From: Candidatus Hermodarchaeota archaeon
GTDB taxonomy: Archaea; Asgardarchaeota; Lokiarchaeia; Sigyniarchaeales; SOKP01
Length of the DNA: 14,521 bases
Direction of reading: 5' to 3'
Assembly (NCBI GenBank): GCA_048885525.1
Contig: JBHLLP010000064.1
Span: 1 to 14,521 of the forward strand
Shown here: positions 621 to 14,521 of the stretch, one piece after another
Layout: each line of letters opens with the position of its first letter
How positions within the stretch are numbered: position 1 is the first letter of the stretch
Translations under genes and position numbers: made by a program
Notes under the pieces: generated by a model
Told to the model about the DNA's origin: nothing
Seen by the model: only the letters and a program-made list of their open reading frames with translations
Databases searched by the model: none

Positions 621-1880
621 TTAACATATACTTTTATCTTGAGTCCAAGCAATTTTAAACAATTTATCTTCTGAAATTAATTTTTCTAATATATTCTGAC
701 TAAATTGATTATAAAAAACAGGTTCTAAAAAGCTGGAGCTTTCAAAATAAGGTTTTATCAAATTTCTCTGTAAAGTAGTGTCGTTTTTAATTGTATTCGC
801 TAATTTCGTGTAATTATATACCCGAAGGTAAGAATCTACGCTTATTTTTGTAGGGCGATGAGTTTTAAAAAAACTTATCATGTTTTTAACGGATTCAAGC
901 GATTCATCTGGAAATCCTACTAATAAATCAACTGTTAATTCTATTTGATACTTATTACAAAATTCAATTATTTGCTTTAGGTGATTATAGTCGTAATGGT
1001 TCAAATTCTGAATTCTTTTATCGCTGGAAACAGTAAGTGCTATTAAATATGCATTAGATTCGTGTAGTAGCGAAAATAATTCTTCATTATAAGGATATGG
1101 CTTCATAAAAAGTTTCCATTTAATAGGGAAATTCTCCTTAACTAAAGCCCTACAAAACTTCATTGAAAAATTTAGATCAGAATTAAATTCGTTATCACAT
1201 GAGCGAAATTGCTTATAGCCTTGATCGACAAGATATTTAATTTCTTCTATAATATGTGGGATTTTTTTGTACCATCTTTTTGTATAAGATGAGACGCAGA
1301 ATGGACATTTATCTGAACATCCGGCGTGGGTTTCAAATCCAATATCCTCTTCCTTAGATAAATACATGGAATAATCAATTCTACTACCCCGAAAATGGAT
1401 TAATTCAATATCAGGTCCATATTGCCAACCATTATAAATCTTTTTTGTTAATTTTTGAGATTCATATAATTTTAAAAATCGGGGGAACATAATTTCCCCA
1501 GGACCAATGATACCATAATCCCCATCAAGATAATCTAATATTTCATGAGGCATGGCAGAAAAACCTGAACCACCTAGAACTACCGGGATGTTGCGTTCTT
1601 TGACGCATTGAACTAAAGGTTTAATAGCGGGTAGAAAAAACTCATTGTTAAAATAACCTAATGAGTCAATGTTACGGATTGAAAAACCTACGATATCATA
1701 TGAAATTTTATCTAATGCATTAGATAACTTATCTTCTTGAGATTCACAAAAGCATAAATCTAAGATATCAACATTGTAATTGTATTTCTCTAGAGCAGAT
1801 GCAATATATTCTAAGCCAATGGGGATTACTGGGGGGTCTTTGAATCTGTTTGGATTCACTAATAATATATTAAAAACCAT
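621..1880 (-). CDS. Cobalamin-binding radical SAM protein (class B methyltransferase-like), substrate unknown
   Basis: N-terminal B12-binding domain (ILLVNPN..PIGLEYIASAL..DIVGFSIRNID..VVLGGSGFS..GPGE) followed by CxxxCxxC (GCSDKCPFC) and a later LLVGFPDES motif. Confidence 0.85.
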   Translation of the reverse strand: MVFNILLVNPNRFKDPPVIPIGLEYIASALEKYNYNVDILDLCFCESQEDKLSNALDKISYDIVGFSIRNIDSLGYFNNEFFLPAIKPLVQCVKERNIPVVLGGSGFSAMPHEILDYLDGDYGIIGPGEIMFPRFLKLYESQKLTKKIYNGWQYGPDIELIHFRGSRIDYSMYLSKEEDIGFETHAGCSDKCPFCVSSYTKRWYKKIPHIIEEIKYLVDQGYKQFRSCDNEFNSDLNFSMKFCRALVKENFPIKWKLFMKPYPYNEELFSLLHESNAYLIALTVSSDKRIQNLNHYDYNHLKQIIEFCNKYQIELTVDLLVGFPDESLESVKNMISFFKTHRPTKISVDSYLRVYNYTKLANTIKNDTTLQRNLIKPYFESSSFLEPVFYNQFSQNILEKLISEDKLFKIAWTQDKSIC

Positions 1881-2137: not shown

Positions 2138-2743
2138 TTAACTCGTGATTTGTATAATTTCCTCTATTAATTCATCTATCATTTTCACAGGTATACCACA
2201 TAACAATTCGCAATCACTAAAGATACCATTCAATCGAGAATTAGGACATAAAAATGAAAAATTTACCTCATTTCGTTTAATTACATAAGCAGTAACTTCG
2301 CTACATACTCCATCAATTATACCACAAGTTGCTTTTAAAGGTTTTTGATATAATCTAACATATGCTTCAACAATATACATACAATTATGAGGATTTAAGA
2401 TTAAAATAATACTATCATATTCTTCAACTTGTAATTTATTAATAGGAAAAAGTAGGATATATTCAAGTCCTTTTGCTTCTAACCTCATTGTTAATTCTAG
2501 ATTATCGGGTTCATTAAAAGCTAATATCCCTTTCTTTTTATGACAAGAAAAGTTTCCATTCTGGACTTTCAAAAATTCTCCTTGAGAAGCCATTTTAATA
2601 TATTCACAGAATCTTCTTGATTTACTTACTTCTTTAAATTTTAATTTATTGGATAAGTTTTTATTAAAATTATAAATGAGTTTAATCCCAATCGGATTAT
2701 ATTCTAATTTTAAAGTTTGCTTTAAATTTTCAAATTTATTCAT
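2138..2743 (-). CDS. DUF169 family protein (Cys-containing, probably metal/Fe-S binding)
   Basis: PIGIKL, RFCE, FSC, GVCSE, FSFLCPNSR and ELLCGIP match the DUF169 pattern as I recall it. Confidence 0.7.
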   Translation of the reverse strand: MNKFENLKQTLKLEYNPIGIKLIYNFNKNLSNKLKFKEVSKSRRFCEYIKMASQGEFLKVQNGNFSCHKKKGILAFNEPDNLELTMRLEAKGLEYILLFPINKLQVEEYDSIILILNPHNCMYIVEAYVRLYQKPLKATCGIIDGVCSEVTAYVIKRNEVNFSFLCPNSRLNGIFSDCELLCGIPVKMIDELIEEIIQITS

Positions 2744-2787: not shown

Positions 2788-3153
2788 TTAGAACCACTGT
2801 GTAGCATCTACTTCTAAGACTAAATCATTTAAAGTTGCAGCTCCAACTATTTTAACTCCTGGTATTAAATCCACTTTTTCCCAACCTAGCATTCTTTTAG
2901 AAGCTTCGCATACTAAAATCTCAATTCCCATTTCTAACGTCTTATCTATCATTTCCTTAACGGTTGGAAACGAGCCAAGTTTTATTCTGTCAGCTTCCCC
3001 AGGTTTTAAAATTCTTAATGCTGTACCTAAATAATATACTATAGGTTTAATATCCATCGCTTTAGCGGTTTGAGCTAATACTAAAGGAGAATATTGGCGT
3101 TCAGGGTCGTGTGATGTTTGAACATATAAAATTGTTTTTTCTTTTTCGTTTAT
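2788..3153 (-). CDS. DsrE/DsrF-like sulfur-relay or peroxiredoxin-like protein, about 121 aa (longer than the 89-aa track ORF)
   Basis: The frame stays open upstream of ATG 3057 to a TAA at 3159-3157, adding the DsrE N-terminus (TILYVQTSHDPERQYSPLVLAQTAKAMD). Conserved Cys in ILVCEAS and a VGAATL motif are present. The only start near the SD GAGGTG (3166-3161) is ATA at 3153. Confidence 0.75.
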   Translation of the reverse strand: MNEKEKTILYVQTSHDPERQYSPLVLAQTAKAMDIKPIVYYLGTALRILKPGEADRIKLGSFPTVKEMIDKTLEMGIEILVCEASKRMLGWEKVDLIPGVKIVGAATLNDLVLEVDATQWF

Positions 3154-5091: not shown

Positions 5092-6405
5092 TTAATGTGT
5101 CGTACATGAGACACAAGGATCAAAAGCTCTGATTATTCTCTGAATATTGTTTTTCACTAAATTAATATCTCCTGTTCTTTCAAAAAGTAATTTTGCATAA
5201 TTCGTAATCATTTCATTTATAAGAGGAATATTAAATTCGGTAGCAACAAATAATTTTGTTCGATCAATAAAATTATGATCATTTACGTAATAATGATGTA
5301 ATAATAAGCCTCTGGGAGCTTCAATAACACCAATCCCTTCAACTTTTTTTACAGAATTCAAAGCAGGGTTTTCTTGTTTAGTAATTAAATTAGGATCATC
5401 TAAAATTTGTAAACTCTGGAAAGATTCTAAATACATTTCTAATAATCTAAAAAAATTAGCAAATAAGATATTATTTTTCCATTGTTTATCAAAATATTCA
5501 AGATAATTTTGAGTCTCATCTGTACCATAATTCTCTGTAATATTGTACCGGGCAAAAGGACCTACAATCACATTTTTTTTATTATTAAAGTAAAAATCAA
5601 TTCCACGTAAATCAGGCTCCTTTCCAAAATAGGAAGAATAATTGTGCTTTTCAAAATCTATTAAATTTTTATTATCCTCTTTGAGTGATATTCTACCTGA
5701 ATATCGATTAGAATTTTTAAAATTCGAGAGCCCTAGATGAATGAGATTTGGAGTCTCAAATTCTTTAGGTGGTACTTGATGGGAAAATAATTCAATAAAT
5801 TTTTCGATAATCCATTCTAAATTGACTAATGCATTTTGAAATTTCTTTTTAGCTGTTGAAATATTTTTTTTGGAAGGATAAAAAATAATTCCTCCAGGAA
5901 TAATTGAAATTAAATGAACGGATCTACCTCCAAACAAATTATTAATTTCATTTCCAATTTTAATTAATTCATATATATTTGTAGTTAGTTGTGGGTCATA
6001 ATTGATTAAATCATAAGCATTTGCAGTTTTCTGACTAATATTAAAGATATTTAATAGATCTGGTAAAGCTTGGAAAAAGAAATTCATAGAATGGGATTTG
6101 ATTAATTCTCCAGTCATTAAAATACGTCTTAAGAGTTTTGCTTGTTCCGAAACCTTGATATTATATATATCCTCAACTGCTTTACAACTAGCGATTGTTT
6201 GAGAAGCATAACATAATCCACATATCCTAGAAACTATTTTTGGGATATCTAATAATGACTTTCCAATTAAAAAATGTTCAAAACCTCTATAAATTTTAAA
6301 TTCAAAATTAACTAAAGAAATTTCATCATTTTGGATTAAAATTTTTATATCGCCATGTCCTTCTATACGTTTACAAATATCAATCACTTTTAACACATTT
6401 CTCAC
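5092..6405 (-). CDS. mvhA: [NiFe] hydrogenase large subunit, group 3 (MvhA-like by context), with atypical sensor-like features
   Basis: RIEGHG, RGFE, L1 SRICGLCYASQ, EAPRG.L.H and L2 RAFDPCVSCTTH-stop. The GTG start overlaps the upstream TGA (GTGA, 6405-6402). Confidence 0.88.
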   Translation of the reverse strand: MRNVLKVIDICKRIEGHGDIKILIQNDEISLVNFEFKIYRGFEHFLIGKSLLDIPKIVSRICGLCYASQTIASCKAVEDIYNIKVSEQAKLLRRILMTGELIKSHSMNFFFQALPDLLNIFNISQKTANAYDLINYDPQLTTNIYELIKIGNEINNLFGGRSVHLISIIPGGIIFYPSKKNISTAKKKFQNALVNLEWIIEKFIELFSHQVPPKEFETPNLIHLGLSNFKNSNRYSGRISLKEDNKNLIDFEKHNYSSYFGKEPDLRGIDFYFNNKKNVIVGPFARYNITENYGTDETQNYLEYFDKQWKNNILFANFFRLLEMYLESFQSLQILDDPNLITKQENPALNSVKKVEGIGVIEAPRGLLLHHYYVNDHNFIDRTKLFVATEFNIPLINEMITNYAKLLFERTGDINLVKNNIQRIIRAFDPCVSCTTH

Positions 6406-7160
6406 CCTTCCAATTTTGGTTTAGAGAATCGATAAAAAATCCCAGTATAGTCTTTAAGTTCTTGAGATAAATTTATCAAACTTAAATAGTTAACAATATT
6501 AGAAGTAAAATCTTTTGATACAGGCCCTAGACATCCTTCACAGGGAAGACCCATTTTAATGCATTTATGTTCACACCCATCTCGAGTTATGGGTCCTAGA
6601 CATAATATGCCATTTTGTAAAAAACATTGAGAGGTTTCCTCATCAAGTTTAATCTCTTCTGGATTTGGAGCAATTTTTGTAATATTTATACTTGAATTTA
6701 TTTTCATATCTCCTCTTAATGGACAATTACCACACATATTCTTTTCAGAGAGCTCTATTTCCTTATTTTCAACCAATCTAATTAGACAATTTCCAAAAAG
6801 TTTCATAGGAGGTGGACAGCCAGGGATAATACCATCAATTTCAATATAATTTGAAATTGGCTCTGTAACTTTTACATCTGATAGACTCAATATTCCTCCA
6901 AAACTAGCACATGTTCCTAATGCATATATTTTTTTTGCTTGTTTTCGGAGTTTTCGAAGGATAGGTATTTGATTTTCTTCAGAAATGCATCCTTCCACTA
7001 AGCATATATCACAATCTTCAATGTCTTTTACATCAGAAATAAACTGAAAGTAAATAACTTTAGTTCTTTCAAGAAATTGCGGAAAAATATCTAACGAAAT
7101 AAGAGATGAGATGCATCCACTACAAGATGTTAGAGATACTATTACAAATCTACGTTTCAA
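6402..7160 (-). CDS. mvhG: [NiFe] hydrogenase small subunit (MvhG/VhuG-like), about 252 aa
   Basis: SLTSCSGC, LVEG, ALGTCASFGG, IPGCPP, CGNCP and CFLQNGILCLGPITRDGCEHKCIKMGLPCEGCLGP. Start reassigned to TTG 7160, which lies 5 nt after SD GAGGAGGT (7173-7166) and overlaps the upstream stop by 11 nt. Confidence 0.85.
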   Translation of the reverse strand: MKRRFVIVSLTSCSGCISSLISLDIFPQFLERTKVIYFQFISDVKDIEDCDICLVEGCISEENQIPILRKLRKQAKKIYALGTCASFGGILSLSDVKVTEPISNYIEIDGIIPGCPPPMKLFGNCLIRLVENKEIELSEKNMCGNCPLRGDMKINSSINITKIAPNPEEIKLDEETSQCFLQNGILCLGPITRDGCEHKCIKMGLPCEGCLGPVSKDFTSNIVNYLSLINLSQELKDYTGIFYRFSKPKLEG

Positions 7161-9699
7161 ATTTAACCTCCTCATATAATTTTGTATAAAATTTATTAAC
7201 TGCCTCAGCAAACTTAATGCCCTCAACAGCATTCATATGTTTAAGAATTATTCGTTCACGGTATTTCTCTGGTATGATATTTTTTAGTAACATTATTTTT
7301 TTTTCTACTTTTTCTACTCCATCAATATAACGACATGCGTTTTTTCTACAACCAATTACCATTATTCCATCGAAACCAAACTCAAAAGATTTAAGTATGA
7401 AACTTGTATCAATACGACCAGTACAGGGAACAGGTAAAATAAAAATGTTCGGATTATATGAAATCTTTTTATAACCAGCATCATCAGCAGCAGCATAACC
7501 ACAAGAGCGACAACAAAAGGCAATAATTTTAGGTCGTTTTCTGAACTTCGAAAAAATTTCAATTGATTTTAAAATCTTCCCAGAATTATCTATATTTAAA
7601 TCTATCGCATTAGTTGGGCATATACTAGCGCATGTACCACAACCCTTGCATTTAAATTTATCTATACTTACTTTTTCTGATTCTATTGTAATTGCGTTAT
7701 AAGGACATATTTTAGAACACAAACCACATAACCCACACTTGTTATCATCGATTTCAATTCCACTAAATTCCGCTATCAAATAATCATTGGAGAGAAGTGA
7801 AATTATCTTAATTGCAGTATTATTAACTGTTGAAATAGTAGAATTATAATCTAATGGTCCAAATATAGTTCCAACTCCATATATTCCAGATGCTAAGGTT
7901 TCTTCACTCATAAATCCGTAATCATCTAATGTAAAATCCATTGTTTTTCGAAATGATTTTAGATCTTCATTTGGTATTAATGTTTGGTTTAAAACAATTA
8001 AATCACTTGGATATTCTTTCGAGTCCACCTTTACTATCTTTTGATTGTTTTTTTCAATTATTTTTATTTTATTGCTATAATGCATTCTAGAATCCATGGA
8101 TCTAAGTAAAAAATCATCAGCTTTATTTATCTTACTTAAATCGTAAAAAATGTTTACTTTACAGCTAGGAATTTTTGCTTCAATATAATTTAAATATTTT
8201 AGTGCTAGGATATCTTGAAGTTTATGTTGGTGATCAGGAGGTCCTACATATTGTACAATTGAAATTGTCTTTGGAGGTGTTTTATCAGAAATTTTTAATA
8301 TTTTGCCTTCTGTAAATCCATCCGAGGATAACATTCTTTCAAATTCAGATGATGTAATTATATCATTTTGTGGGTTATAACAATAATCGTCTAAATCTGA
8401 GAAAAGGTCAGAACCTATAGCTATAACTTTTGTACCTACTTTAATTTCCATTGGCTCTGGTCTTTTTGTCAAATCTATGGCCTTATTCACGCAAGCACGT
8501 TCACAAATTCTGCAGTTAAGGCAATTATTGATATCTGATTCATCAATTAAAGGAACATAGGGAAAAGAATGAATAAATGGGATGTAAATAATTTTTCTAT
8601 TAATTAATCCAAATTCATATTGATTTGGTTTTTCAATACTACATACTTCTATGCATTGTTTGCAACTAGTACATTTCTTTATATCCACATATCGAGGTTT
8701 TTTAATCAAATTAAGAGTAAAATTTCCAACTTCACCTGAAACGCTTTCTATTTCAGTATTAGTAAGAACTTTTACATTTTTCTCATTAACTAACTCACCT
8801 ATTAATTCTGAAATCAAGCATATAGAACAATCACCCATATTATGAATTCGATCCCATCTGGCAACCTTACCTCCTAAAGTTGGCGATTTTTCAATAACAT
8901 ATACCTTTATACCAGCTCGAGCTAAATTTAATGCTAGTGTTATACTAGCAATTCCACCTCCTATAATTGCAGTACTCTTTTCAATTTCCACTCTCTTAAC
9001 TTTTACTTTTTCTTGAAGACTTATCCGTTCAATAGCTGCTTCAATTAGCAATTTTGCCTTTTCTAATGAAAGAACAGGGTCTATCTGATTTGTTTCGAAC
9101 TGATGTACCCAACAACATTGTTCTCTAATATTTGCTATTTCTATATTGAAATGGTCAATAACGCCATCAAAAATTCGTTTAAAAAGATGTTGATGAGTTC
9201 TAGGAGAACATGCTGCTATTACAATCTTATTTAAGAAATTATCTTTTACCCAATGAGTAATTTTATCAAAATTTTTTTGTTGACATAAATTTTCGAAGAT
9301 TTTTACAGAAACAACCATTCTTAACTTACTAATATATTTTTCAAGTGCCATTATATTAATTACATTTGAAATTTCTGTATTGCAGTTGCAAATTATCACT
9401 CCAATTCGGTTTATTTCACTTCCCTTGGAATCTAAATATTCCTCAATATTCTCTCCTGATAAAATTCTTTTGTTAAGGTTTAGAATCTTTAATACGCGTT
9501 TACCATCTTCAGTAAGAAAATATGATTTTTTGTCTTTATTTATCAGTGAACCAATTTTTTTAAGATGGAAATTTAGTTGCCCTGTTGTTTCTAGACCCAA
9601 TTTTTCCATTAAATCTGTATAGGGAATATAACCCTCTTTTTCTAAAAGAAGTAAGATTTTTCTTCTAAACGGGTGAGATAATATAGCATATAAATCCAT
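7150..9699 (-). CDS. Fusion protein: ArsR-like winged HTH (aa ~1-75) + degenerate HdrA (aa ~98-720) + MvhD [2Fe-2S] domain (aa ~722-849)
   Basis: wHTH: LSHPFRRKILLLL..YTDLMEKLGL.TTGQLNFHLKKI..YFLTEDG. HdrA: RIGVIICNC, AACSPRTH, ANIREQCCWVH, IIGGGIAS, GDCSIC and four CxxCxxCxxxC motifs. MvhD: IIAFCCRSCGYAAAD..VPCTGRID..DGIMVIGCRKNACRY. Confidence 0.9.
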   Translation of the reverse strand: MDLYAILSHPFRRKILLLLEKEGYIPYTDLMEKLGLETTGQLNFHLKKIGSLINKDKKSYFLTEDGKRVLKILNLNKRILSGENIEEYLDSKGSEINRIGVIICNCNTEISNVINIMALEKYISKLRMVVSVKIFENLCQQKNFDKITHWVKDNFLNKIVIAACSPRTHQHLFKRIFDGVIDHFNIEIANIREQCCWVHQFETNQIDPVLSLEKAKLLIEAAIERISLQEKVKVKRVEIEKSTAIIGGGIASITLALNLARAGIKVYVIEKSPTLGGKVARWDRIHNMGDCSICLISELIGELVNEKNVKVLTNTEIESVSGEVGNFTLNLIKKPRYVDIKKCTSCKQCIEVCSIEKPNQYEFGLINRKIIYIPFIHSFPYVPLIDESDINNCLNCRICERACVNKAIDLTKRPEPMEIKVGTKVIAIGSDLFSDLDDYCYNPQNDIITSSEFERMLSSDGFTEGKILKISDKTPPKTISIVQYVGPPDHQHKLQDILALKYLNYIEAKIPSCKVNIFYDLSKINKADDFLLRSMDSRMHYSNKIKIIEKNNQKIVKVDSKEYPSDLIVLNQTLIPNEDLKSFRKTMDFTLDDYGFMSEETLASGIYGVGTIFGPLDYNSTISTVNNTAIKIISLLSNDYLIAEFSGIEIDDNKCGLCGLCSKICPYNAITIESEKVSIDKFKCKGCGTCASICPTNAIDLNIDNSGKILKSIEIFSKFRKRPKIIAFCCRSCGYAAADDAGYKKISYNPNIFILPVPCTGRIDTSFILKSFEFGFDGIMVIGCRKNACRYIDGVEKVEKKIMLLKNIIPEKYRERIILKHMNAVEGIKFAEAVNKFYTKLYEEVKFET

Positions 9700-9821: not shown

Positions 9822-10955
9822 TCATGAAGGAGTTTTGTATGATTTCGATTTATTTAATAAAAATTGCTCCGTTCTTGCTATTTTTGATTGAGAGAACTGG
9901 TTAAGTGTTTCTTTCATTTGATTTTTAATTGTATTATCTATTTTTAAACTCTTAATTATCCCTGTTTTAATTGCTCTATCAATTATATCTTTTCCTTTTT
10001 TAGTTCGAGTGATTACTGTTGTAAATTTATCTGGGGAACCTAATCCTCCAAAAGAGATATCAGCATAAATATTAGTAAAATCTTTGCAAACTTCACAGGC
10101 GGGACGCATATAATCAGTTAATTCTTTAAAGTTTATATAAACCTCTTTTTGATCGGCTACATGGTTTTTTAACTCAATAATTAAATTCTCTTTAATATTT
10201 ATTCTCTTAATATCCTTGAATTTAATTTTAAATTGCTTCTCGAATTGTTTCATTTTTGTTCTATCAAAGAAGAAATTCTCATAGCAAAATAGTCCAAGAC
10301 AGATTTCTATGTTTTCGGATGGAATTATTCCTAGACTTTGCATACATCTAATTGTATAAATTTGGCAAGGAGTCCCAACAAGTGCTAATTTCTTAAATTT
10401 ATAATGCCGTAATTTAGGTAATGAACTAATATATGTATGGAATTTCTGTATCGTGTCTAATTGTGCTGACATGTCCAATTTTGTACCTGAGGCATTTATT
10501 AAATCATTTCTAGTTTTAGCGATAATAGCTTCTCTAGAGAAAGCTGATTTTGTTTTTGCAACAATTGCTCCTTCAATAATTTTTTTTTCTATTAAGTAAT
10601 TTATAATTGTGTTTACAACGCCTCCATCTGTTCCATATTTCAAAAATTCCTCATCAGTTGATTGACATGAATAAATATTATCTATATAACCTAGAGGCAT
10701 TAATGAAAAGTCTGAAAAATTGAAAGTTTTATTAAGATCTTCATCTAAAATATGTGTTTGTGGACAGATCAAATAACAGATACCGCACTCTAAACACTTT
10801 TTCTTGTTTATATATTCTGGCGGTGAATTAGGGTTTTTAAAACCAATCACTTCGTTTTCAATTGAATTACAAAAACTCACACAGCCACCACATTGTTGAC
10901 AAATGCCGAGTTCATGAACCTCTTTAATTAAATCTTGAAAATCTTTAATTTTCAT
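9822..10955 (-). CDS. Coenzyme F420 hydrogenase/dehydrogenase beta-subunit family protein (FrhB/FdhB-like) with N-terminal ferredoxin domain
   Basis: CQQCGGCVSFC, CLECGICYLICP, GTDGGVV, VGTPCQ, LGLFCYENF, CEVCKDFT.IYADISFGGLGS and RTKKG. SD-like GGTGA lies upstream. Confidence 0.9.
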   Translation of the reverse strand: MKIKDFQDLIKEVHELGICQQCGGCVSFCNSIENEVIGFKNPNSPPEYINKKKCLECGICYLICPQTHILDEDLNKTFNFSDFSLMPLGYIDNIYSCQSTDEEFLKYGTDGGVVNTIINYLIEKKIIEGAIVAKTKSAFSREAIIAKTRNDLINASGTKLDMSAQLDTIQKFHTYISSLPKLRHYKFKKLALVGTPCQIYTIRCMQSLGIIPSENIEICLGLFCYENFFFDRTKMKQFEKQFKIKFKDIKRINIKENLIIELKNHVADQKEVYINFKELTDYMRPACEVCKDFTNIYADISFGGLGSPDKFTTVITRTKKGKDIIDRAIKTGIIKSLKIDNTIKNQMKETLNQFSQSKIARTEQFLLNKSKSYKTPS

Positions 10956-11372
10956 TTTTAAAAATCATCACCATTCATTATTAATTTTAAAAATTTTTAT
11001 GACTATTTTGATAAACTTTATGATCTCTATGATAAATATTGTTGTCAAAGTATATAAATGTGATCTATTTTCCGTTTTTTACTTTTAGATATTGTCAAAA
11101 ATATATTAATAAAGTCTCAATAATAATTATGAAACCGATAGATCCATCGTATGAAACCAACCATATAAATATCAGATTCGTACATTAAGTCAAAAAAAGA
11201 CAAAAAAATTAGTCAAATTAATAAAATTTCCCTTATCATATTTTTTAAATTGACTTAAAATCTTCATTTAAACGGAATAAGAGATAATAAAACATTTTTT
11301 GCATTTTTAAATTTTTAATTGTTTTAATTTCATTCATTTGCTTTATTATTAGGAGTTGGTGATGTTATAAAT

Positions 11373-11378
11373 AGGTGA
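11373..11378 (+). promoter_or_regulatory. Shine-Dalgarno AGGTGA for hdrA
   Basis: AGGTGA-ATAAA-ATG(11384). Confidence 0.7.
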
Positions 11379-11383
11379 ATAAA

Positions 11384-13420
11384 ATGTCTGAGATACAGAC
11401 CATAGTAAGAATAGGAGTTTATATTTGTAGATGAGGAGTTAATATTAGTGCTTCTATTGACTGTGATATCATCAGAGATTACGTTGAAGCTCTCCCAAAC
11501 GTTATTGTAGCAAGAGTAAATGATTTTACTTGTAGCGATCCAGGACAAAATATTATAAAAAATGATATTTTAGATTTAGACTTAAATCGAGTTGTTGTTG
11601 CAGCTTGTACACCTAAAATTCATGAATCCACCTATCGAGTAGTTTTAACTCAAGCAGGATTGAGCCCTTATTACTTCCAAATGGTTAATCTGCGTGAACA
11701 TTGCTCATTTACATACTCGGGAAATAAGAGAAAGACTACTGAAAAAGCGATAAGGTTAGTGCAAGCTGGGATAAATCGTGCTAGAGAATTAGAAATAATA
11801 CCTTATAAAAAAGTGTCAGTAGAAAAATCAGTATTGATTATCGGTGCGGGCATTGCAGGGATGAATGCTGCATTAGATTTAGCAAATCAAGGAATTAACG
11901 TCTATTTAGTCGAAAAAGAAGCCACAATTGGCGGGAAAATGGCACAATTAGATCGAATTTATCCTACAGACGATTGTGCTATATGAGTTTTAGCACCTAT
12001 AATGGTTAGCACTTCAAAACATCCAAATATAACATTATTTACTTATAGTGAAATCATTAAATTTAGTGGTATCCCTGGAAATTATAATGTTAAAATTCAC
12101 AAAAAAGCACGGTATATTAATGAAAAAAAATGCACTGGTTGTGGATTATGTACAACTGAATGCCCAATAAAAGTTCCTAACGAATTTGATAGAGGTATTG
12201 GCGAACGAAGTGCAATTTTCATACCTTTTCCCCAAGCAGTACCTAAAGTTGCGTTAATTGACAAGAGTGTATGCATAGGATGTAAAAATTGTCAAAGAAT
12301 TTGCCCTGCAGAAGCCATTGATTTTGAACAGACTTCAGAATATATAAATATAAAAGTTGGAGCGGTAATTATTGCAACGGGATGGGATGAATATCCAATT
12401 ATGGAAAATAACGATTATAAATATGGTATTTATCCTGATGTTATTACTCAAATAGAATTAGAACGTATGTTGAGTCCAGTAGGACCAACTGGAGGTCATG
12501 TATATAGAATTTCTGATGGGAATATCCCAAAAACAGTTGCAATGATTCAATGCGTAGGTTCAAGATCCTTAAATGGAAATCCCTATTGCTCAGGAGTATG
12601 ATGTAATGTTGCACTTAAAAACGCGCAATTGTTAAAACAAGAATATCCTGATATGGAAATTGTTATCTTTTATATAGATATGCGGACATGGGATAAAGGA
12701 AATGAAGAATATTATAGAAAAGCGAGAGAAGCAGGGATAATGATGATTCGGGGGAAGGTAGGAGATATTCGAGAAGATCCTAACCTTAAAAAAATAAAAG
12801 TTATAGCTTCTTCAACATTGACAAATGATTTCATTACCATGAATACCGATTTAGTTGTATTATCCACCGGTATGATTCCATCTAAAAAAACAACACAAAT
12901 TGTTGAAACTTTAGGTATTGCTAAAGATATCAATGGGTTTTTAACTGAAGTTCATGGATGCCTAAAACCTCAAGAAACAACTAATTTGGGTATTTATATT
13001 TGCGGTTGTGCTGCTGGACCTAAAAATATCCCTTATTCCGTCTCAACAGCGTTAGCTGCGGCAAGTAAGGTATCTACTTTACTTTCTAAAGATAAAATAA
13101 CTCAAGAGTTAATCATCGCTGAAATAAATGAAGATTTATGTATAGCTTGTCATAGATGTGAGAAACTCTGTAATTATAAGGCAATAAAAGTTAATGGAGA
13201 AAATATAGCTGAAGTAGACGATTTGAAATGTAAGGGCTGCGGAGTTTGTGTATCTTCATGCCCTGCTCGAGCAATTGATCTAAAATACTATAGAGATCAA
13301 CAAATTATTGAAGAGATAAAAGGGATTTGTAGCACTGAACTTGAATATAAGGAAGAATTTATTGAATCTATTGAACTTGTTTGGAAAAAAATAGAAGAAT
13401 TAACTCCTTATACTTCATAA
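11384..13420 (+). CDS. hdrA: Heterodisulfide reductase subunit A, 678 aa, predicted selenoprotein with three UGA-Sec codons (U17, U201, U406)
   Basis: A single frame from ATG 11384 to TAA 13418-13420 joins track ORFs 11660, 12002 and 12629 plus an unlisted N-terminus (MSEIQTIVRIGVYICR*GVNI). TGAs at 11432, 11984 and 12599 fall in CR*G, DDCAI*VLAP and YCSGV*CN, all Cys positions in HdrA. GAGIAG, QCVGSR, GPKNIP and four ferredoxin motifs are intact. Confidence 0.93.
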
Positions 13421-13528: not shown

Positions 13529-14521
13529 TCAGTAGCGATTAATTTGATTTTTGATCTTTAAGGAAATTAATTTATTATACCAATCTAATTTCTTATTCTT
13601 CCATTCAATAGTTCTGTCAGATGGAACAATAAGTTGCTCAATTATTCCTTTTGAAAGCATATTATTTATTACTTTCTCACCTTTATCTGTTCTAATTAAA
13701 ATCATGGAATATCCTTCTGGAGCTCCAGACGCCCCAACACTAATATCTGTAAATCTTCCTGTGAATTCATCACATTCATGGCAATTAATTCTTACTGCAG
13801 GATTAAGAGTTTTTATATTGATTTCGAATTCTTTATTATCTTTAGTTTGGATAAAAAAATTCTTTTTTATCCAAGTTTTTTTAATATTAGTAGGATCAAC
13901 ATTAGTCTCTTTTCTTAGAATATCATATAATTCGCTATAGATAAAATTCTCAAAACAGAAAAGACCTATAATATATTTAATTACATGCGCGGGTTTTACA
14001 AGTAAATATTTCATTTTACTTACAGCCTTACATTGACAAGGAGTTCCAATAAATGCAATTCTTAGCTGATCGATATCAAATATTTCCTTTTTCATAAGAA
14101 TCTCTTGTGGTATAGTATATAAATTTTTTAAAGGAAATATTTGAGGAGAAATTGAATAACGAGTACCTGCTGATTTAAAAAGATCTTCTTTATCAAATAT
14201 GATTTTTGGAACAGGTTCAAAATTATCGTTAAATTCTGAAACAATAGCTGCATCAATTTTATGTTTTTCAAATAAATATGTTAGAATTGCTGAGACCACT
14301 CCTCCATCTTGTCCAATTTTTTCTAATGTTGAGATTGTTGTTTTAGCAGCAAGAATTTTAATAATATATCCAATATTATCTTCAATACAATAATTATCAT
14401 TCAACTCTTTTAATAATACTTTAGTTTGGGGACAAATATAATAACAAACACCACATTTAGTACAATTCTCAACAGTTTTTTCTGATTTAAACTCCGGAAT
14501 GTATCCTTTCATTTCAATAAC
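13529..14521 (-). CDS. Second FrhB/FdhB-like F420-binding beta-subunit protein, 5'-truncated by the window edge
   Basis: CTKCGVCYYICP, GQDGGVV, SAGTRY, IGTPCQ, IGLFCFENF, CHECDEFT...DISVG and RTDKG. The frame is open beyond ATG 14512 to the edge (..VIE-MKG), and the paralog's first ferredoxin motif is missing, so the true start lies outside. Confidence 0.88.
   Translation of the reverse strand, partial: VIEMKGYIPEFKSEKTVENCTKCGVCYYICPQTKVLLKELNDNYCIEDNIGYIIKILAAKTTISTLEKIGQDGGVVSAILTYLFEKHKIDAAIVSEFNDNFEPVPKIIFDKEDLFKSAGTRYSISPQIFPLKNLYTIPQEILMKKEIFDIDQLRIAFIGTPCQCKAVSKMKYLLVKPAHVIKYIIGLFCFENFIYSELYDILRKETNVDPTNIKKTWIKKNFFIQTKDNKEFEINIKTLNPAVRINCHECDEFTGRFTDISVGASGAPEGYSMILIRTDKGEKVINNMLSKGIIEQLIVPSDRTIEWKNKKLDWYNKLISLKIKNQINRY

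Follow-up and report, generated by a model that had tools for sequence, protein, structure and literature searches.

The DNA analysed here (hereafter, the window) is the whole of contig JBHLLP010000064.1, 14,521 nucleotides (14.5 kb), from the genome of a Candidatus Hermodarchaeota archaeon of the Lokiarchaeia (GCA_048885525.1; 3.58 Mb, 87 contigs, 99.3% complete). Four consecutive genes on its reverse strand encode: (i) an FrhB/FdhB-like protein; (ii) a fusion protein that joins a winged helix-turn-helix (wHTH) domain, an HdrA-like part and an MvhD domain; (iii) an MvhG-like [NiFe] hydrogenase small subunit; and (iv) an MvhA-like large subunit (Table 1). The mvhG start overlaps the fusion stop by ~26 nt, and mvhA overlaps mvhG by 4 nt. 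The fusion gene is the subject of this work: its HdrA part has lost all four ligands of one [4Fe-4S] cluster, HA4, whereas the ligands of the remaining clusters are kept.

Table 1. Features of the window and, in the last row, of related loci, with position, strand and basis or remark.
Feature	Position	Strand	Basis or remark
wHTH-HdrA(HA4-less)-MvhD fusion gene	7150..9699	-	Open reading frame (ORF) and translation, Pfam, PDB, AlphaFold2 (AF2), Foldseek
N-terminal ArsR-like wHTH (DUF7347/PF24038), residues ~2-72	9484..9696	-	Pfam, own-genome scan
FAD (flavin adenine dinucleotide) dinucleotide motif GGGIAS, residues 247-252	8944..8961	-	G247 and G249 in 121/121
Cys pair C291/C294 (DCSIC), equivalent to Cys197/200 (Cys202/205) of solved HdrA	8818..8829	-	Each in 121/121
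Former HA4 [4Fe-4S] loop, residues 480-500	8200..8262	-	Ligand positions are Y484, Q491, Q495, D496
K501, equivalent to flavin-N5 lysine K409 of M. thermolithotrophicus HdrA	8197..8199	-	121/121
C-terminal FAD 'GD'-type motif GIYGVGTIFGPLD, residues 605-617	7849..7887	-	Family alignment
Fused MvhD/FlpD domain, residues 725-841, six conserved Cys	7177..7527	-	PF02662 E 3.7e-33
MvhG-like [NiFe] small subunit	6402..7175	-	PF01058; VhuG model E 1e-37, under its cut-off
MvhA-like [NiFe] large subunit (RICGLC ... DPCVSCTTH)	5092..6405	-	PF00374
FrhB/FdhB-like flavo-iron-sulfur protein, N-terminal 2x[4Fe-4S]	9822..10955	-	PF04432, PF04422, Fer4_9; first operon gene in near clade
Operator-like palindrome TGACAACAATATTTATCA (read on -)	11030..11047	.	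Exact TGAYAA-N6-TTRTCA
TATA box TTTATATA	11051-11058	-	Promoter of frhB-like/hdrA-like operon; palindrome 3 nt downstream
Canonical HdrA paralog, 681 aa, three in-frame TGA (selenocysteine, Sec), intact HA4 motif	11375..13420	+	Divergent to operon
B12-binding radical SAM protein	621-1880	-	Downstream of operon
DUF169 protein	2138-2743	-	Downstream of operon
Small DsrE-like protein	2788-3057	-	Downstream of operon
PF09176 proteins	L058 3659-5332, 7139-8821; L066 7262-8254; L080 3948-5630; L083 2728-4422; L086 2173-3870		

The frame of the fusion gene is open across 849 codons and the codon of Q483 starts at 8253, both as stated by an earlier, model-generated interpretation of these letters (hereafter, the sequence-only reading). 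According to Pfam, the 849-residue product has three parts: (i) the PF24038 wHTH; (ii) an FAD/Rossmann region with four 4Fe-4S ferredoxin-type signatures; and (iii) a PF02662 MvhD/FlpD domain. The wHTH scores 39.5 bits (cut-off 27.6) and has a weak PDB match to the putative ArsR protein 1y0u (E 0.008), while the MvhD/FlpD domain scores 114.6 bits (cut-off 22.3). In the PDB, the counterparts of residues 95-714 are the HdrA of M. marburgensis (8rvu, E 1e-109) and that of M. thermolithotrophicus (5odc_A, E 4.5e-103), and residues 722-841 match MvhD (5odc_D, E 8e-25). The AF2 model, built from an 80-sequence alignment, has a mean predicted local distance difference test score (pLDDT) of 87.8; in Foldseek, its TM-score by target is 0.85 for both 8rvu_A and 5odc_A, and that of its last domain is 0.91 for MvhD 8rvu_F. 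Residues 84-94, the linker that follows the wHTH, fall below a pLDDT of 50 and are predicted to be disordered or are of low confidence. The best NCBIfam model for the protein is HdrA2 (E 3e-171), but all curated HdrA/HdrA2 cut-offs are missed (571 vs 1100 bits for HdrA2, 422 vs 1300 and 366 vs 1400).

BLASTP of the fusion protein against the divergent HdrA paralog of the window (34% identity) sets QYVGPPDHQHKLQDILALK opposite QCVGSRSLNGNPYCSGV(U)C, and the solved HdrA of M. marburgensis (8rvu) also has an intact site at this place. None of the four HA4 ligand positions is a Cys in the fusion, against either comparator; the loss of all four ligands, first claimed from the paralog, is hence borne out by the methanogen protein. 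The paralog is only 34% identical and is not the ancestor, and the wHTH-HdrA-MvhD sisters that keep HA4 (see below) are more informative. The former HA4 loop is ~5 residues shorter than in the paralog and, in the AF2 model, its block consists of a strand (478-485) and a helix (493-509) with a pLDDT of 83-84. The motif CxGSR...CSxxCC is presumed here to be the HA4 ligand set, as the 2017 structure paper (5ODC) reportedly has it. The domain description in PMC9012536 also underlies this assignment.

The loss extends to the whole family, represented here by the 120 relatives at 66-90% identity listed from a clustered protein collection, plus the window protein (121 rows). Both a length of 816-855 aa and PF24038 are shared by nearly all the relatives, and those with a named source come from Asgard metagenome-assembled genomes. 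The four HA4 columns carry Cys in 32, 0, 1 and 0 of the 121 rows; residues 480-500 hold no Cys in 82 rows, one in 32, two in 7 and more than two in none. In other words, no ortholog retains the Cys set of the site, so the loss is not a strain-specific decay. A nucleotide-binding glycine motif was not seen at the former HA4 site either, where the family reads VGP followed by variable residues. By contrast, between 117 and 121 of the 121 rows retain Cys at each of 29 other ligand columns: (i) C104, C106, C139, C164 and C195 of the N-terminal cluster domain; (ii) the DCSIC pair, whose role in HdrA is treated in PMC9012536 and PMC13580544; (iii) the 16 Cys of four CxxCxxCxxxC ferredoxin motifs; and (iv) the six Cys of MvhD, themselves kept in 117-121 rows. 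The 23 columns that lie in the HdrA part (N-terminal domain, Cys pair, inserted and C-terminal 2x[4Fe-4S] ferredoxin domains) are present in 120-121 rows. The sequence-only reading had listed these same groups of ligands as retained, which holds beyond the window protein. With four of four ligands of one site gone and 29 other ligand columns near-invariant, the loss of HA4 exceeds chance as judged from the alignment; that the cluster itself is missing from the protein is what we infer from these residues.

Some Cys have, on the other hand, been gained in the HA4-less family, namely C513 (110/121), position 243 (109/121, Thr in the window protein) and C196 (80/121). To judge from the alignment, these gains are too few and too scattered in sequence to stand in for a four-Cys site.

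The flavin site tells a different story from the one first proposed, which saw decay in GGGIAS and in the difference from GIYICGCAAGP of the paralog. The Ser of GGGIAS is private to the window protein (1/121), since position 252 is G in the other 120 rows (GGGIAG), and GGGxAG is canonical, 8rvu reading GGGVAG. Further along, E270 is found in 119 rows and both G276 and G277 in all 121. At the C-terminal GD-type motif, G605, G610, G614 and P615 are kept in 116-121 rows and D617 in 78; solved HdrA proteins read GVYLAGVAQGPKDIP and GVYLAGVAQGPKD there, and only the paralog has the two Cys of GIYICGCAAGP. On this alignment, the GIYICGCAAGP difference is neither a lost ligand nor a lost FAD contact. 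All the features of the thioredoxin-reductase-like FAD domain of HdrA (GxGxxG, the acidic residue after strand 2, GG and G..GP.D) were found, and degeneration of the FAD site was ruled out. Furthermore, E454 (E356 of M. thermolithotrophicus HdrA) is present in 121/121 rows, and the equally invariant K501 aligns to K407-K411 of the ~650-aa canonical HdrA representatives. In the account of PMC12054007, K409 and E356 stabilise the flavin and are proposed to tell bifurcating from non-bifurcating HdrA.

The gene is under purifying selection. Nei-Gojobori ratios of nonsynonymous to synonymous substitution rates (dN/dS) were computed for 41 full-length genes (the window and 40 related loci), in 97 pairs of at least 84% protein identity that are not independent of each other. 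The median is 0.098 for the whole gene, 0.044 for the wHTH (the lowest of all regions) and 0.18 for the HA4 region (residues 478-512), which is the highest and still purifying. The same DNA occurs in four sediment metagenome runs, at no less than half of the sampled words; no RNA run is among the 13 sequencing runs listed for it, which has no bearing on expression. A decaying gene or an assembly artefact could be read into the single private substitution of the FAD motif (G252S, 1/121). Nevertheless, the open frame of 849 codons, the 120 orthologs, a dN/dS of ~0.1 and the recurrence in four metagenome runs leave this explanation with a probability close to nil, and decay, strain-specific or otherwise, was discarded as a candidate together with the artefact. 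The sequence-only reading had likewise rejected pseudogenisation.

An exhaustive HMMER search of 50%-identity representatives for sister lineages returned full-length wHTH-HdrA-MvhD relatives that keep HA4, i.e. P0123, P0124, P0125 (cluster members named Bathyarchaeia) and P0128 (named Lokiarchaeia), all of which bear the four Cys in a short C-x6-7-C-x3-CC loop; it also returned an additional HA4-less lineage, P0126/P0278. The tree is a quick maximum-likelihood one (LG+G4, with the Shimodaira-Hasegawa-like approximate likelihood-ratio test, SH-aLRT, as its only support), made from 58 of 80 aligned rows with the HA4 columns left out. In it, the wHTH proteins form one clade (SH-aLRT 100) and the HA4-less proteins form another (98), nested within the HA4-keeping wHTH proteins. 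On this tree, the loss of HA4 maps to one clade inside the HA4-keeping wHTH-HdrA-MvhD relatives.

A scan of 301 genomes of the phylum for the fusion family gave a full-strength match (E = 0) in 50 of the 69 genomes of the window's taxonomic family, and weaker full-length matches in other taxonomic families. Eight such weaker-match Asgard loci were examined, and all eight contain the wHTH-HdrA-MvhD/mvhG/mvhA unit. Their HA4 site is intact at 51% identity (QCVGGID-KCSTYCC) and at 36-38% identity; at 55% identity there is a remnant, QSVG...SSEYCY, which looks like an intermediate state. Across the related loci L009-L086, the large subunit diverges faster than the HdrA-like subunit (for example 78-84% vs 90%, 50-57% vs 67-70%, and 34-36% vs 51-55% identity, each pair within the same loci).

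Among 66 loci of other species genomes, mvhG and mvhA follow the fusion gene wherever downstream sequence is present. The FrhB-like gene and the divergent three-Sec hdrA are its neighbours in relatives of ~74% identity or more (the near clade) and in no others. The best PDB matches of the MvhA-like subunit are 7t2r_D (E 9e-58) and MvhA 5odc_F (E 1e-48), with the NAD-reducing hydrogenase 5xf9_D also among its matches. This subunit is the sole PF00374 match in the genome, tblastn of MvhA and MvhG against the genome hits the window alone, and neither PF00346 (group 4 large subunits) nor PF02906 ([FeFe] hydrogenases) has a match in the whole genome.

Concerning the partners of canonical HdrA, there is no CCG (HdrB-type) domain on the window contig, and the 28 CCG matches of the genome all lie on other contigs. 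The sequence-only reading had pointed out that hdrB and hdrC are missing from the window; this is true but weak on its own, the window being one 14.5-kb contig and the HA4-keeping relatives being also without adjacent hdrBC. Indeed, no HdrB or HdrC domains appear in the Pfam-scanned flanks of six relatives (L058, L066, L080, L082, L083 and L086), of which two are family members, one belongs to the 55% family and three keep HA4. Adjacency to hdrBC was dropped as a discriminator, given that HA4-keeping relatives lack it too.

Elsewhere in the genome, HdrA paralogs on contigs C48 and C12 directly adjoin CCG-domain (HdrB-like) matches, i.e. canonical hdrA-hdrB clusters. In the window, no mvhD follows the three-Sec hdrA, whose next ORF is a convergent FrhB-like gene (13529-14512). 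Asgard hdrA and frhD/mvhD are described as always adjacent in PMC11227280.

The wHTH calls for a target, and a candidate lies in the promoter. Scanned for inverted repeats, the window's two promoter regions gave AT-rich imperfect pairs only; the palindrome emerged from a comparative alignment of 19 intergenic regions (three-Sec hdrA to frhB-like), which contain two conserved TGAYAA-N6-TTRTCA palindromes, one of them directly after the TTTATATA box. In some genomes the arms co-vary (TGACAAA/TTTGTCA with TGATAAA/TTTATCA). Across 61 loci, 62 exact sites fall in the 106.6 kb that lie up to 1.8 kb upstream of the fusion gene, as against 14 in the remaining 948.9 kb, an enrichment of ~39-fold; at least one upstream site is present in 41 of the 61 loci. 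The half-site TTGACAA occurs 9 times in the window, where 3.6 are expected and 1 of 200 shuffles reached 9, a signal that is weak by itself. The fusion's wHTH is a probable binder of this palindrome. Since the HA4-keeping relatives have an identical or one-mismatch palindrome upstream, the pairing of wHTH and operator appears, by sequence comparison, to be older than the loss of HA4.

Exact sites also recur beyond 1.8 kb, at ~-5100 to -5900 from the fusion start (L063, L072, L030, L052, L014) and at ~-4050 to -4090 (L037, L039, L040, L047); the distal site of L063 lies upstream of a homolog of an L066 aminotransferase gene. Such distal TGAYAA-N6-TTRTCA sites hint at a small regulon.

What the loss may mean follows from the place of HA4 in related enzymes. 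In PMC9012536, HA4 is on the electron path from FAD to HdrC/HdrB; in PMC12350162 and PMC13580544, the high-potential electron goes from FAD' via HA4' to HdrB, and its low-potential counterpart reaches HA5/HA6 by way of the shuttle cluster HA3. Because HA4 is the relay from FAD to HdrC/HdrB in the solved Hdr complexes, an HA4-less protomer would be unable to pass the high-potential electron to heterodisulfide reductase. The earlier proposal that the branch directed to HdrBC is disabled agrees with this published path.

The reading favoured here, with a confidence that falls a little short of even, is that of a hydrogenase module that has lost its coupling to HdrBC, has ferredoxin or FrhB as its partner and also regulates its own operon. 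The fusion would serve a [NiFe] hydrogenase of three genes (wHTH-HdrA-MvhD, MvhG, MvhA) as the electron-transfer subunit that carries flavin and iron-sulfur clusters, and probably works differently from the methanogen HdrA whose name it bears. One Lokiarchaeial clade would have eliminated HA4 while FAD, the shuttle cluster, the Cys pair, both ferredoxin domains and the MvhD [2Fe-2S] cluster were kept under purifying selection. The single chain that remains would run from [NiFe] through the MvhG clusters, the MvhD [2Fe-2S] cluster, FAD and the N-terminal cluster to the inserted ferredoxin clusters, and would end at an external ferredoxin or at the co-transcribed FrhB-like protein. The hydrogenase would plausibly evolve H2 in a fermentative syntroph, because the transfer from H2 to ferredoxin alone is, by our own reasoning, uphill. 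The tethered wHTH most likely binds the palindrome just past the TATA box of its own operon, which would tie the operon's expression to the state of the complex. We infer the direction of electron flow and its partners, the binding of DNA and any redox control of it.

Several points weigh against such a reading: (i) with 28 CCG-domain matches elsewhere in the genome, HdrB-like partners exist; (ii) HdrA is dimeric in the solved complexes, and a heterodimer with an HA4-bearing paralog could restore the path to HdrBC; (iii) the flow from H2 to ferredoxin without bifurcation is uphill, again by our own reasoning, and only H2 evolution is thermodynamically easy; (iv) the equivalents of E356 and K409 are present in 121/121 rows, and the flavin may still bifurcate with some other high-potential partner; (v) the HA4-keeping relatives share the wHTH and similar palindromes, so DNA binding does not explain the loss; (vi) the palindrome is not significant in the window alone, where there are 2 matches at up to one mismatch and 24 of 200 shuffles reach 2; and (vii) the second promoter palindrome of the window is degenerate.

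The fourth of these points leads to an enzyme that still bifurcates or confurcates, in which another high-potential partner reaches the flavin without HA4, be it a diffusible cofactor in the freed space or the FrhB-like protein. The invariance of E454 and K501 fits such an enzyme, as do the shortened loop with its retained second Rossmann strand-helix and the co-transcription of the FrhB-like gene in the near clade; moreover, direct access of coenzyme F420 to FAD has been suggested for HdrA2 (PMC12054007). Nevertheless, no nucleotide-binding glycine motif has arisen at the site, the FrhB-like gene is absent from more distant HA4-less members, and the HA4 region, being the least constrained (dN/dS 0.18), is more in keeping with a relaxed loop than with a new binding site. 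We consider this explanation quite improbable.

The second point can be developed into an asymmetric heterodimer of the fusion with a canonical HdrA such as the three-Sec paralog, whose own HA4 would feed HdrBC, so that bifurcation is kept in one half-complex while the MvhD and shuttle cluster of the fusion serve the partner's FAD. There are precedents: in solved complexes the MvhD of one protomer delivers electrons to the FAD' of its counterpart (PMC13580544; PMC12350162), and complementary losses in paired HdrA paralogs have been proposed for anaerobic methanotrophic archaea, ANME (PMC9012536). The canonical paralog adjoins the fusion gene throughout the near clade and lacks the adjacent mvhD reported for Asgard hdrA in PMC11227280. 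However, there is no adjacent paralog in family members of ~72% identity or less, nor in the 55%-identical HA4-less family, and because this adjacency is confined to the near clade an obligatory heterodimer is argued against. In addition, the losses are not reciprocal, the three-Sec paralog being complete in every cluster site; the fusion's own FAD motifs, E454 and K501 are invariant, which an idle flavin would not need; and hdrBC is near neither gene. On balance, a heterodimer is rather doubtful.

The sequence-only reading had, for its part, suggested a non-bifurcating electron sink or sensor. The sensor or regulator half of that suggestion gains from the wHTH and the palindrome, two features on which it had not drawn; the non-bifurcating half is a deduction that has to face E454 and K501 in 121/121 rows. 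A dedicated H2/redox sensor-regulator without metabolic flux can indeed be envisaged, in which H2 at MvhAG would set the state of FAD and the iron-sulfur clusters and this state would control the wHTH on its operators. Consistent with it, the wHTH is the most constrained region (dN/dS 0.044) and sits on a flexible linker, the palindrome lies directly past the TATA box and is enriched upstream of orthologs, and one catalytic outlet is gone with the exit cluster. Furthermore, 52 of 61 relatives have a large subunit whose last residue is the His of DPCxxCxxH and which lacks any C-terminal extension (5092-5120, reverse strand, in the window); lineages of 36-55% identity have 7-10 extra residues there, and the motif is altered in one lineage. 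Such an end is also seen in regulatory hydrogenases.

Other observations do not fit a sensor. The large subunit is the only one found in the genome, and the lack of a metabolic hydrogenase to regulate is odd unless environmental H2 is what is reported. The five remaining [4Fe-4S] sites, both ferredoxin-type output domains included, are invariant although a sensor does not obviously need them, and HA4-keeping relatives have the same wHTH and similar palindromes. The best PDB matches of the large subunit are group-3-type enzymes and not sensors; an affiliation with the group 2b regulatory (H2-sensing) [NiFe] hydrogenases was not found in these matches. A sensor without flux is accordingly held to be unlikely. 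The same low probability is given to a transition from enzyme to regulator, in which the complex would have become a self-contained H2/redox sensor and transcription factor at its own and neighbouring operons, with the HA4-keeping relatives as the earlier state.

Whichever reading holds, the fusion can be compared with several known systems. HdrA of the methanogen MvhAGD-HdrABC, Elp-Hdr and Fdh-Hdr complexes (5ODC, 8RVU, 7BKB) has the same fold (TM-score by target 0.83-0.85), and shares the FAD motifs, the E356/K409-type residues, the N-terminal cluster, the Cys pair, the inserted and C-terminal ferredoxin domains and the partnership with MvhD, MvhG and MvhA. Unlike it, the fusion is without the four HA4 ligands, has MvhD fused and a wHTH added, has no hdrBC nearby and scores below the NCBIfam cut-offs. 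HdrA2, or 'type Ia' HdrA-MvhD (Methanosarcina HdrA2B2C2; class according to PMC12054007), shares a C-terminal MvhD on a full five-domain HdrA. The fusion differs from it in its low score with the HdrA2 model, the absence of HA4, the added wHTH and the fact that it is encoded with a hydrogenase and not with hdrB2C2. The HA4-keeping sisters, from other Asgard families and Bathyarchaeia, have the same three-part architecture, mvhG-mvhA neighbours in the eight Asgard loci, similar promoter palindromes and an 8-residue deletion before the GD motif which is shared with the fusion; they are 35-53% identical to it and differ in that they retain C-x6-7-C-x3-CC.

sHdrA of sulfur oxidisers (Hyphomicrobium denitrificans, 6TJR; Foldseek E 9e-19) is a structural match, a thioredoxin-reductase-like flavoprotein of the HdrA type that is held to be non-bifurcating. 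Its reduction is opposite to that of the fusion: in sHdrA the FAD-proximal cluster remains and the other domains are gone, whereas the fusion loses only that cluster. Finally, trigger enzymes and regulatory hydrogenases (PutA; HoxBC-HoxJ/HoxA) are cases in which a hydrogenase or other redox enzyme doubles as a regulator of transcription. These have no homology to the fusion, whose predicted DNA-binding domain is on the hydrogenase's own electron-transfer subunit.

Three marks of HdrA are, in consequence of the above comparisons, missing from the fusion: the HA4 ligands, the association with hdrBC and a score above the NCBIfam cut-offs. Since the iron-sulfur cluster number commonly varies among HdrA classes (PMC12054007), losing a cluster is not in itself a new sort of change. 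An HA4-less or wHTH-fused HdrA was not found described in the literature searched (subscription journals and supplements were outside its scope), nor was the name DUF7347 found there. Within that scope, what appears to be new is the loss of the FAD-proximal relay in an MvhD- and wHTH-fused subunit of a hydrogenase operon. A link to the abundant [NiFe] hydrogenase of cultured Lokiarchaeia (PMC11216029) was considered and dropped, the presence of the family there not being established.

Other genes recur around the operon. A protein with the N-terminal domain of methylene-tetrahydromethanopterin dehydrogenase (PF09176; Table 1) is found beside the hydrogenase unit of relatives, with ~560 aa in 5 of 6 cases and 330 aa in L066; its gene is divergent and upstream in HA4-less relatives, and on the same strand, directly 3' of mvhA, in two HA4-keeping lineages. 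Several relatives have the DsrE-like ORF close to the operon as well, with 87-93% identity.

Syntrophy scenarios for how eukaryotes arose draw on metabolic models of Loki-type Asgard archaea, and Asgard group 3c [NiFe] hydrogenases with HdrABC are read as a methanogen-like bifurcating complex (PMC11291895). If the HA4 cluster is truly absent, the annotation of an MvhADG-HdrABC bifurcation would be wrong for a widespread clade, which gave a full-strength match in 50 of the 69 sampled genomes of the window's family. It would then have to be asked anew how these organisms make or use H2; no other hydrogenase large subunit was found in this genome. In any case, the fused DNA-binding domain and the promoter palindrome offer a testable case of an enzyme of energy metabolism that may regulate genes.

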